This document shows, in pieces, positions 5,354-15,196 of a stretch of DNA of 64,000 nucleotides; the stretch's first letter is position 1, and each line of letters begins with the position of its first letter. Origin of the DNA: an uncultured Pelagibacteraceae bacterium (GTDB taxonomy: Bacteria > Pseudomonadota > Alphaproteobacteria > Pelagibacterales > Pelagibacteraceae). A program made the translations under genes and the position numbers. Where the stretch lies: NCBI GenBank assembly GCA_902573385.1, contig CACGJS010000002.1, positions 17,393 to 81,392 on the forward strand, in the 5' to 3' direction. Below the pieces are notes generated by a model. The model was not told the DNA's origin, ran no database searches, and worked only from the letters and a program-made list of their open reading frames with translations.

Positions 5354-5675
5354 TGGATACTCCTAAAGTGGAACTTTTTATAGATTTTCGCTTTTCAGCT
5401 ATTTCCCCTGCTATTGCAGAGTAGCCACAAGCATCAACATAATCATCAGGATTGTGCTGACCTGCTTGTGTTCTAGCTATTTTTAGTAAAGCCATAAGAT
5501 TAGCTACATCTTCAGGTAAGATTATTATATTTAATTTAGTCTTATTCTGTAAATAGGAAGACCATAACCTTGCGATATTTTCATGGTTTTGTACTTTATC
5601 TCCATGCTTATCTTCTCTGTCAGTACTAACTAGCTTTTTGGTTTTCTCTAAAATGTCTGTAGTGTTCATATTCAA
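5316..5675 (-). CDS. DUF6378-like phage protein
   Basis: HGD...NHENIARLWSSYL...VANLMALLKIAR...DDYVDACGY pattern. Confidence 0.75.
   Translation of the reverse strand: MNMNTTDILEKTKKLVSTDREDKHGDKVQNHENIARLWSSYLQNKTKLNIIILPEDVANLMALLKIARTQAGQHNPDDYVDACGYSAIAGEIAEKRKSIKSSTLGVSNDKKSTKANNKQ
5362..5376 (-). promoter_or_regulatory. Candidate phage RNAP late promoter
   Basis: AAGTTCCACTTTAGG; shares AAGTTCCnCTT with 12326-12340; position equivalent to T7 phi6.5. Confidence 0.45.
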
Positions 5676-12276: not shown

Positions 12277-12326
12277 GCCAACTGAACAACTAGAAAGGAA
12301 AAGGATATGGTGGTCGTTCAGTTAGC
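12277..12326 (-). promoter_or_regulatory. 14-bp RNA hairpin in SSB leader
   Basis: GCTAACTGAACGAC pairs with GTTGTTCAGTTGGC (2 G-U); 22-nt C/U-rich loop. Confidence 0.6.
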
Positions 12327-12340
12327 TATAAGGGGAACTT
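12326..12340 (-). promoter_or_regulatory. Candidate phage RNAP promoter upstream of replication genes
   Basis: AAGTTCCCCTTATAG; ends TATAG like T7-family promoters; first gap after RNAP. Confidence 0.5.
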
Positions 12341-12344
12341 AATC

Positions 12345-12358
12345 ATGCACTAGTGCAT
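12345..12358. promoter_or_regulatory. Perfect 14-bp palindrome, candidate operator
   Basis: ATGCACTAGTGCAT; variants at 15055, 15126, 15183. Confidence 0.65.
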
Positions 12359-12377: not shown

Positions 12378-14048
12378 CTATATACAAAAGAATACAGACT
12401 GCTTGACCTGTTCTAAATTAAGATTTCCTTTTACTGGCATTTGAGGAAACTTCTTTAGGTTCTTCTCAGATAACATTGCTTTCATTTCATTTGCAAAATT
12501 CAATAAAACATCTTCTTTATAGATTTCACAAAAACTATCACGAATTGCATCTGCCATTATTTTATTTTCTGGGACTGTGCAACCAAAGCTGTCATGTATC
12601 ATACTAAAGTTATCAACTCCTGCTTCTTTAGCTTTAACAACTGCTAACTGTAAAACACTAGCATCAAGTGAATGTATAAAATTAGGACAAACTGATTGTG
12701 CAGTTTTTCTTTTATCAATTATATTTGTTTGTGATGCTATAGATAACTTAACAATGCTATCTCCCATTTTAGTTTTAACTCTTTTACTTTCAGTTTTGTA
12801 ACACATCATTTGAACTGGAAAGTTAAGTTTAGGTGTTGTCCAACATACTGGTAGATTTTCTGATGCTACTAGTCTTGCTATAGATTTTAAGAAATCCATA
12901 ATGTCTCTAGCTTTAACAACTACATCATTAATACTGTCCCATACTATTGGTGTTAGATAAGCAGTAGCTTTAAATAGGTCTTCTCCAAACTTATGTTTAG
13001 TTCCTCTTTCAGCTAATTCTTTAGTTACATGGTCTTCTAAGTATTGTCTGCATGAATACCTTGTTAATGAATAAGGTAAACACATAACAGGCTTCTTACA
13101 GATTTTTCTATTTATTCCATAGTCCAACCATAACTTAGCTATATCATCTGTTTTAGCTTTTAGTTTTTCAGTAACCTTTTCTGCAACTAAATTATAAACA
13201 TCTGCAGGTTTATTACTTGGTACTAAATTAGTAGCTAATCCACCTACTTCATCTCTCATCATTGCTGAATAATGTTGTAAGCCAGAATTACTACAGTCTG
13301 CTTGTATTGGTAGCGTTGTTATAAAACTATCACTAAATTCGCTATCACTATACGCTTTCATTTCATAACAAAATGCTAAGAAACAAAAAGGTTTATCTGC
13401 ATCACACCACCATGTGTATTCTAATGGAGACTTGGCACATTCGATAATTCTTTCCATATTATCTTTAATCCATTTAATTCTTACTGGAAGTTCTTCTTTA
13501 TCTACTTCTCCAAATAGACCTGCACCTGCTATTGCTAGTACATCAAAATTATCTCCTATTCTTTTTCCAAATTTAAAAGTTAATAAGGCTCTAGAATAAT
13601 CTGCTGACTGTGGAGATAACATTGCAGGTTTCGGATATATCCTCGACCTGAAGTCTAATTGGTAAGGATAAAAGAAACCACCTTTGTCTAAAAGCATTTC
13701 AGCTTCTTCTATAATCTGACTTACTTGTATGAACTTAGAGTTTTGTTTTGCTCTACCCTCATAGACTTTAGATGCTTCTCTTTTCCATTTAATTAAACTT
13801 TCCTTATTTGTAGATATATCTACAGGCTTTATAGGAAGTTCTATTGTTTGTGGATTTATTGGTAATTTGCCTAGAGGAAAGTCATTTTCCATACATTTCT
13901 TAATAACCTCAAATATAGGTTTATTAATTACCCATTCTGTATGTTGCATAATATTGACTGATTTATAGACATCAGGCATTTGTTTGGCATGATTTTTCAG
14001 TTCTTCTAGGTATCTTCTGTTTGACGCTTTTACTAAATTAAAGTGCAT
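12378..14048 (-). CDS. T7-like RNA polymerase, C-terminal catalytic subunit
   Basis: DFRSRIY, motif A ADCSNSGLQH, motif B RKICKKPVMCLPY, motif C IHDSFG; own AGGAG SD. Confidence 0.93.
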   Translation of the reverse strand: MHFNLVKASNRRYLEELKNHAKQMPDVYKSVNIMQHTEWVINKPIFEVIKKCMENDFPLGKLPINPQTIELPIKPVDISTNKESLIKWKREASKVYEGRAKQNSKFIQVSQIIEEAEMLLDKGGFFYPYQLDFRSRIYPKPAMLSPQSADYSRALLTFKFGKRIGDNFDVLAIAGAGLFGEVDKEELPVRIKWIKDNMERIIECAKSPLEYTWWCDADKPFCFLAFCYEMKAYSDSEFSDSFITTLPIQADCSNSGLQHYSAMMRDEVGGLATNLVPSNKPADVYNLVAEKVTEKLKAKTDDIAKLWLDYGINRKICKKPVMCLPYSLTRYSCRQYLEDHVTKELAERGTKHKFGEDLFKATAYLTPIVWDSINDVVVKARDIMDFLKSIARLVASENLPVCWTTPKLNFPVQMMCYKTESKRVKTKMGDSIVKLSIASQTNIIDKRKTAQSVCPNFIHSLDASVLQLAVVKAKEAGVDNFSMIHDSFGCTVPENKIMADAIRDSFCEIYKEDVLLNFANEMKAMLSEKNLKKFPQMPVKGNLNLEQVKQSVFFCI

Positions 14049-15028
14049 TATTTCTTCTCCTTGTTAATTGATTGAATGATTTCTTTAGTATCGTTTTTGT
14101 AGTTATGCTTCCTGCCATAATATCCTCCTACAAAAGGATTTTCCCAATCTCTAGGTGGCATTAACATTGGTAGGTATTTAGGATAAAGAGCTTCATTCTT
14201 AATATTAAAGTTCTTAATTTCCTCAATGACATGTGGTGTAGCTTCTACATAACAAACAGTTTTAGTCTTACTAGACTTTCTATTCTGATGTTTAACTAGA
14301 TTTAATCTCTCACAATAAGAGACTATTTTTACACCAAGATGTAATTGGCTTTCTTTACTCCAATCATCAAACTGTAATTTGTGCTTGTTCATACAGTAAG
14401 TCCAAACCTTACGCTTGTAGAGGTATCTATTGGCGTTCTGAGGTATGTTTTTTCCTGTAAGTCTCTTTGCTACTTGATTGTATTTATCTTTTTCTTCATC
14501 TTTAAAGATGGTTATTTTAGCTTCAAGCATTAATGCAGTACCAATAACTATAGCTAATTTATTAAGTGTGGTTTCTGCTGAGATACCATCAATTACATTC
14601 TTCAATGCAATCAGGCTCACAGTATCCCATACATTAGGATTATTCTCTACGAACTCCTCGTTAATAAATGCTGACTTTGGTAAACACTGACAGAGTAGCT
14701 TTAATGCTGTTTGCCTATTCCCTGCTTCTCCTGAGGTCATTTTACAGACTTCATCATGGATTAGCTTGGATAGCTCAGTTATATACTTCTGCTGAAGTAC
14801 AATGCCATATAGCGTAGTACTTTCTTGATTATCCTTTACTGCTTCTCTGATTAGCTTTTGGTATCTATTTATACCACCTCTAATCATAGCTTCTTCAAAA
14901 GCTATTTCTTCTTCAATCTTTTTTACATAGTCTTCGGTGTTCTCATTTCTAAATTTACCACCTACTCCTACTTTAATTAATTCCTCCAACTGTTGCTGAA
15001 GTAATGTCTTCTGTTCTGATGTACTCAT
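14048..15028 (-). CDS. T7-like RNA polymerase, N-terminal subunit
   Basis: FEEAMIRGGINRY, WSKESQLHLGVKI, PMLMPPRDW...GGYY (T7 PCVVPPKPW...GGGYW). Confidence 0.9.
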   Translation of the reverse strand: MSTSEQKTLLQQQLEELIKVGVGGKFRNENTEDYVKKIEEEIAFEEAMIRGGINRYQKLIREAVKDNQESTTLYGIVLQQKYITELSKLIHDEVCKMTSGEAGNRQTALKLLCQCLPKSAFINEEFVENNPNVWDTVSLIALKNVIDGISAETTLNKLAIVIGTALMLEAKITIFKDEEKDKYNQVAKRLTGKNIPQNANRYLYKRKVWTYCMNKHKLQFDDWSKESQLHLGVKIVSYCERLNLVKHQNRKSSKTKTVCYVEATPHVIEEIKNFNIKNEALYPKYLPMLMPPRDWENPFVGGYYGRKHNYKNDTKEIIQSINKEKK

Positions 15029-15054: not shown

Positions 15055-15196
15055 ATGCACTTGTGTTTTGTGTTGCACAACAAATTGCGTATTTTGATAG
15101 TTTTGTTGCATTTGTTGCAGAAACTATTCACTAGTGCATATAATGTTATATTTAAAAAAAGCTGTTGCTATTGAAGAAGAATATGCACTAATGAAT
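15055..15196. promoter_or_regulatory. Three degenerate copies of the 14-bp palindrome upstream of RNAP
   Basis: ATGCACTTGTGTTT 15055-15068, ATTCACTAGTGCAT 15126-15139, ATGCACTAATGAAT 15183-15196. Confidence 0.6.
15102..15119 (+). repeat. Tandem direct repeat TTTGTTGCA x2, candidate integrase arm-type sites
   Basis: Further TGTTGCA at 15071; about 100 bp from att core. Confidence 0.4.

Follow-up and report, generated by a model that had tools for sequence, protein, structure and literature searches.

In the 64-kb stretch of DNA analysed here (the window), a T7-type RNA polymerase (RNAP) is encoded by two minus-strand ORFs. The first gene (14048..15028, minus strand, read 15028-14048) encodes the N-terminal part of the enzyme, a protein of 326 amino acids, and the second (12378..14048, minus strand, read 14048-12378) encodes the catalytic part, a protein of 556 amino acids. 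At the junction of the two (14046..14062, minus strand), an AAGGAG ribosome-binding site (14062-14057) lies 8 nt before the second ATG, followed by a TAATG stop/start overlap (14050-14046) in which base 14048 is common to the stop and the start. The first ORF ends with GGYYGRKHNYKNDTKEIIQSINKEKK and a stop codon and the second begins with MHFNLVK. The two ORFs, their TAATG overlap and the strong Shine-Dalgarno sequence before the second ATG had been described in an initial annotation of this DNA and were confirmed. In Pfam, RPOL_N matches the first ORF and RNA_pol the second. On the PHROG 414 profile (816 positions) the first ORF covers positions 4-259 and the second 261-814, with neither overlap nor gap.

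The N-terminal part is equivalent to T7 RNAP residues ~35-288 and contains the C-helix, the promoter-binding domain, subdomain H, the intercalating hairpin and most of the C-linker, to which a conserved N-terminal segment and a 22-aa tail are added. The N-terminal segment carries a QLxELxKVGVGGK motif (window 14945-14995, first-protein residues 12-28), which precedes the T7-aligned part; it is invariant in the HTVC011P/HTVC025P branch and was not seen in the Chosvirus-branch protein of locus L107. The catalytic part is equivalent to T7 292-883 and contains the thumb, palm and fingers and the specificity loop hairpin at 417-444. The promoter-binding domain and specificity loop of the T7-type family are both present, with hairpins seen in both predicted models, and the enzyme departs from the family in being encoded by two ORFs and not as a single polypeptide. 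Compared with T7 1-288 the first half has ~38 additional aa, and the second is ~36 aa short of T7 292-883, so that the 882-aa total, which had been taken as the size of T7 RNAP (883), is a coincidence; the nearest single-chain relatives have ~810-860 aa.

Comparison with T7 shows that the catalytic residues correspond (D251 to D537, K318 to K631, Y326 to Y639 and H485-D486 to H811-D812), and the residues of motifs A, B and C of the catalytic half are invariant across 35 sequences. The DX2GR motif reads DFRSR in the window (Gly to Ser), the clade consensus being DFRGR. The earlier statement that all catalytic motifs are intact in the C-terminal half is right for the catalytic residues and needs a correction at this motif.

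The genes downstream of the pair encode a ssDNA-binding protein, endonuclease I, amidase, primase-helicase, DNA polymerase, exonuclease, portal, scaffold and capsid, and structural genes continue to a terminase-like ORF at the contig end, before the integrase end. [quoted passage not shown] The same layout at the attachment site was described previously (10.1101/410191), and integration at tRNA-Leu(TAG) is a feature of group III pelagiphages, as are an integrase and a group-specific HNH endonuclease. We conclude that the locus belongs to a T7-like prophage, 32 kb or more in length, in a marine SAR11-type bacterium and that the integrase end of the prophage is missing from the contig. In a related record, AP013543.1 (L004:115-546), a hypothetical CDS is annotated over the tRNA/attachment region upstream of the polymerase, which is probably a false gene call.

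The position of the cut can be given precisely. The first protein aligns to T7 through GGYY-G, equivalent to G284-A288, and the second begins at the R292 position, its FNLVK matching LALVR (294-298). The cut is located at T7 288-292, ~160 residues before the cut of N4 RNAP II and ~10 before the laboratory seam at 301-302. The C-linker of T7 RNAP spans residues 251-296, with a hinge at 258-266 and a rotation at 267-268 (PMC3961267), so the cut falls where the linker ends, and ~20-25 residues past the hinge remain in the first protein. Outside this stretch, the model structure of the first protein resembles T7 RNAP, most closely the elongation form (TM 0.57-0.61), and that of the second matches the T7 catalytic body (TM ~0.80) with the specificity loop hairpin kept; being separate models, they carry no information on mutual binding. 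The PPxxW..GGYY arm (T7 ~267-288) is almost invariant. First-protein residues 276-317 have a pLDDT below 50 when modelled alone and yet are highly conserved, a combination that fits, but does not prove, an arm that folds onto a partner protein. It was suggested earlier that the cut parts the promoter-binding domain from the catalytic body. This separation is not a clean one, with the PPxxW..GGY arm staying in the first protein and the specificity loop in the second.

The charged tail of ~20 aa that the initial annotation noticed at the end of the first protein is present (22 aa in the window), but it is variable, with a length of 11-25 aa among relatives, and owes part of its form to the ribosome-binding site and start codon that overlap it: in the overlap types, the tail sequence EEIANAL is encoded by the same bases, in another frame, as the ribosome-binding site and ATG. 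An acidic-hydrophobic pattern is also found in 14 of 17 distinct tails without an overlap, and is absent from the Chosvirus branch. Together with a helix predicted at 314-323, the persistence of this pattern suggests that the tail may be under its own selection.

A protein search against 50,697 phage records returned seven records at 57-69% identity (HTVC041P, HTVC025P, HTVC011P twice, MedDCM-OCT-S30-C28, Eyrgjafa and Gjalp) and one further record, Deep1-GF2-KM23-C739, at 34-40% identity. Six of seven named phage records have two annotated genes or the same two-gene pattern, the seventh being HTVC011P. Six record regions were opened, of which five are annotated with two polymerase genes and HTVC011P with one; the two-gene annotation of Gjalp was seen in the search rows only. 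The likeness of the window to group III pelagiphages extends to the phage group, the break, the MH[YF]N start, the tRNA-Leu attachment site and the gene order, and it differs from the named group III records only in its junction geometry (the TAATG overlap). A comparison with HTVC019P-like phages had been proposed; the relatives are those of the HTVC011P/HTVC025P group, and HTVC019P has a single-chain enzyme.

A set of 77 viral loci from IMG/VR gave 75 informative ones (L078 and L080 are cut short and lack the junction). All 75 are split at the same codon and none is continuous, and their junctions comprise 41 distinct sequences. The start codon of the second gene is ATG in 72 loci and GTG in three, followed by H[YF]N[LF][VIL]K, and AGGA precedes this start in 75/75 loci; as a background, the first gene has 0.043 per 12-nt window. 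The same codon is the site of the split in 12/12 loci on genome contigs, 11 of which are labelled Pelagibacter or Pelagibacteraceae. One locus, L007, has 92.8% DNA identity to the window (98% and 95% for the two proteins) and the same TAATG junction. A search with the Deep1-KM23-C739 protein returned 22 viral loci: 16 are split at the same MHYN/VHYN start and belong to the Chosvirus branch (40% identical), one has only this start, two are uninformative and three distant ones (33-34% identity) are continuous. Every informative locus has the two genes side by side and in the same order. Across 17 pairs, the first gene has dN/dS values of 0.04-0.24, that of 0.24 coming from a pair with dS of 0.005, and the second gene has values of 0.09-0.17, so that both halves are under purifying selection. 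The comparison of related phage and virome polymerases that had been proposed earlier revealed a shared break, and the suggestion of an evolved two-gene state in place of a 1-bp error is supported by the common codon and the purifying selection. Two pairs of loci, L024/L027 and L042/L046, are mosaic, having near-identical first genes with diverged second genes and a crossover within the first gene.

The best 120 protein matches of the second half are 488-574 aa in length (305-973 aa being allowed). Among the best 150 representatives of 50% clusters, 140 have at least 760 aa and three begin with MH at profile position 1, which indicates that the split marks one neighbourhood of a single-chain family. 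One match among 3334 candidates for a fused form of the first half (861 aa, 27% identity) is weak evidence. Two distant representatives, P0213 (554 aa) and P0269 (559 aa), start near T7 300-313 and are possibly other natural splits or fragments. In quick trees, the support of the split clade is 99 in one tree and 53 after P0123, the nearest single-chain protein, was added. A single origin of the split is possible, as suggested by the common MH[YF]N start and by the tree without P0123.

The split itself was already reported. Chen et al. (2019; 10.1101/672428, PMC6811365) found that the RNAP genes of group III of HTVC019Pvirus pelagiphages are fragmented in two except in HTVC011P, that the gene of uv-Fonsiphage-EPL is also fragmented and that no unsplit read occurs in the Fonsibacter prophage, and regarded the break as not recent. 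The initial annotation supposed that the arrangement may exist unremarked, and this does not hold in view of their description. Their account is one short paragraph, which gives neither break position nor mechanism and treats HTVC011P as a true exception. We found no other mention or biochemical study of the split in the literature outside subscription journals and bioRxiv supplements, and no mention in passages of PMC8472413, PMC11617373 and 10.1101/410191. As the arrangement is already in print, our locus adds detail and not discovery. Judged by the sequences compared here, the split is real, old and common to a whole ocean phage group, described before and uncharacterised. New relative to the literature is the status of HTVC011P as a non-ancestral, one-base exception.

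HTVC011P (KC465900.1), a cultured phage, is recorded with one continuous frame of 880 aa. Five viral contigs (L073-L077) are 98.4-99.2% identical to HTVC011P over 2.4-2.7 kb with exactly one gap (L003:4400-4430), where one A of the first-gene stop codon is missing from HTVC011P. The HTVC011P sequence still has the ribosome-binding site of the second gene and its ATG-HYNLVK, out of frame. A search with a pattern that allows both forms found the same five viral contigs and two metagenome contigs, and the extra base is present in 7/7. Contigs cross the L076 junction without a gap in 4/4 runs from four studies, although contigs drop rare variants; in the RNA runs from the L076 run search, 0.05-0.19 of words were present. 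In the tree HTVC011P is nested among split members, and its placement outside them is rejected (p-AU 2e-60). The one-base difference and the nesting together argue that the continuous frame is secondary and not ancestral. By this comparison, it is a sequencing error or a recent deletion, and the public HTVC011P polymerase protein may be an artefact. If the HTVC011P sequence is right, a re-fused form without the conserved MHYNLVK segment is viable. For annotation this means that the only recorded exception depends on a single base.

How do these two genes produce a working polymerase? A fixed cut, separate start signals, a whole enzyme covered once and purifying selection make two genes for one enzyme likely: two separately started, conserved genes would produce two proteins that probably join non-covalently into one working T7-type RNAP. 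A different option is a single gene whose full-length polymerase product arises by programmed frameshifting, read-through or RNA or protein splicing. Frameshifting close to the stop would yield a protein of near-normal length in the overlap types, and the HTVC011P record has such a joined frame. The spacing between stop and start nevertheless varies among the 75 loci (-31 nt in 13, -28 in 22, -10 in four, 0 in 22, +2 in nine, +10 in one and +132 in four) and all three frames occur (48/26/1); no one frameshift or read-through event fits this variation, which argues against a frameshift product. In named records the spacing is -31, -28, -19, +2 or +498 nt. Foreign ORFs are inserted between the halves at the largest spacings, namely a 43-aa ORF in L042 (1011-1142) and L046-L048, and two annotated ORFs (48 and 85 aa) with a third short one across ~500 nt in HTVC025P (L002:4431-4918, spacing +498 nt); none of the 43-, 48- and 85-aa ORFs matched the PHROG families searched. 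The third ORF of HTVC025P is unannotated, ~32 aa long and hydrophobic. With a ribosome-binding site and ATG or GTG also kept in 75/75 loci, we regard recoding as extremely improbable. A sequencing or assembly error, or a decayed prophage gene, has a probability close to nil. Reads of the window itself were not found, and the four runs that were placed on it gave only relatives at 88-99% identity, of which one contig crosses the junction as a split variant. Against an error, L007 has the same TAATG junction, the split is present in cultured, infectious phages and both genes are under purifying selection.

Another hypothesis takes the pair as a control device, in which the N-terminal protein is a limiting or detachable initiation subunit that gates the lytic transcription of the prophage. 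Each gene does have its own start signal, some members are uncoupled by inserted ORFs, the halves can be reshuffled (one mosaic pair has a dS of 0.005 for the first genes and 0.47 for the second) and operator-like palindromes flank the pair. Yet in 71 of the 75 loci the genes are within -31 to +10 nt of each other, the palindromes lie outside the pair with none between the halves, and the integrase-bearing pelagiphages HTVC019P and HTVC200P have single-chain enzymes. No conserved internal promoter was found between the halves among the relatives. A promoter-like 16-mer at 14164, considered as a driver of the second gene, consists of LMPPR codons and is not kept in relatives. In T7, moreover, the N-terminal domain stays on the enzyme and forms the RNA exit channel in elongation (PMC3961267). 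The idea that the split adds a control step in a temperate phage is unsupported, with the genes mostly coupled and no conserved promoter found between them, and we consider such a device distinctly unlikely. The bolder form, in which the clade has a core and a separable sigma-like initiation subunit (limiting, exchangeable or released) that gates induction, and in which no cultured member is truly single-chain, is in our estimate rather improbable. A further possibility is that the functions have parted: the catalytic half would act by itself or together with a different protein, on single-stranded or pre-melted DNA for instance, and the first protein would have a job of its own. N4 RNAP II, whose N-terminal part is reduced and which depends on a cofactor (PMC4496689), gives a precedent for this, and a conserved N-terminal segment specific to the clade is present in the first protein together with a tail helix. 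On the other hand, the halves tile the single-chain profile exactly, they are adjacent and in order in every informative locus and the arm expected to pack on the catalytic body is invariant, which makes parted functions very unlikely.

The mechanism that we favour is the joining of the two proteins into one enzyme, probably a stable heterodimer operating in the manner of T7 RNAP. The first protein would dock on the catalytic protein via the PPxxW..GGYY arm and its N-terminal helices. Docking of the arm beyond the hinge would leave the promoter-binding domain able to swing and refold from initiation to elongation, as in T7. Both proteins would be required to recognise the promoter, because the first carries the intercalating hairpin and the second the specificity loop. 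Through the stop/start overlap, the two proteins would be made in roughly equal amounts. As the origin, a surface-loop break that was tolerated is the most likely, and it would have been fixed once the second gene gained a start signal; the data can be explained without any regulatory gain.

Signals around the pair were also predicted. A predicted phage promoter, TAAGTTCCCCTTATAG, is located at 12326..12341 (minus strand), between the catalytic gene and the ssDNA-binding protein gene. This 16-nt promoter-like motif occurs with at most two mismatches in 53/56 distinct loci and was not found in a coding control, and it sits after the second gene, where T7 and LUZ100 have phage promoters. Just upstream of it is a palindrome, TGCACTAGTGCA (12346..12357, no strand assigned), a predicted operator; TGCA-N4-TGCA with one mismatch precedes the promoter motif in 43/56 loci, compared to 0.023 expected per 70 nt. 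A near-palindrome of the same kind, also a predicted operator, is at 15127..15138 (no strand assigned) upstream of the first polymerase gene, where TGCA-N4-TGCA is found in 44/55 loci vs 0.056 expected per 170 nt. Based on this conservation, the 16-nt motif is predicted to be a phage promoter and the TGCA palindromes operators, candidate sites for a repressor. With three mismatches allowed, the T7-like promoter candidate TAAGTKCCMCYTATRG has seven sense copies and one antisense copy in 32.7 kb of prophage (~1.6 expected per strand). Weaker promoter copies are near 5377 and 1986, with two at the contig end (C2:167 and C2:136). These 32.7 kb have one close copy only of the motif, so that late transcription driven by the phage polymerase can be regarded only as a possibility. 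A scan for sigma-70 promoters gave 12 sites vs 14.4 expected and a terminator scan gave none, with nothing usable in either.

Two kinds of known enzymes can be compared to this pair. N4 RNAP II is a proven heterodimer of 673 aa from two adjacent genes (gp15 and gp16), which needs gp2, and its gp15 holds the thumb and DX2GR (PMC4496689). It resembles our pair as a T7-family polymerase made from two adjacent genes. In our alignment the N4 DX2GR is at gp15 residue 236 and gp16 begins at ~T7 450-459, whereas here the second protein contains the thumb and DX2[GS]R, the cut being at T7 288-292; the statement in the initial annotation that the N4 break lies elsewhere was correct. The context is also different, as N4 RNAP II goes with a virion polymerase in a Schitoviridae setting, while a T7-like gene set is found here, in which neither a virion polymerase nor gp2 was seen and whose longest ORF in 32.7 kb has 1251 aa. 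The single-chain T7-type RNAPs (T7 gene 1, HTVC019P and P0123) have the same domains, catalytic residues, fold and gene context, and P0123, the nearest, has 811 aa and 45% identity. The loop GGYW-ANGRR-PLALVR is continuous in the single-chain enzymes and open here. In laboratory constructs, T7 RNAP divided at 301-302 is active (PMC4299498). None of the five seams described there coincides with the natural cut at 288-292, after which the LALVR strand belongs to the second protein.

Split-polymerase tools could be developed from an evolved pair that assembles by itself, and such a pair could serve to study how the N-terminal domain is held during the change from initiation to elongation. For the family, the pair represents a second natural way to cut a T7-type polymerase, independent of N4 RNAP II, and shows that a covalent connection is dispensable where the C-linker ends. 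The phage group that carries it is widespread and infects the most abundant marine bacteria.
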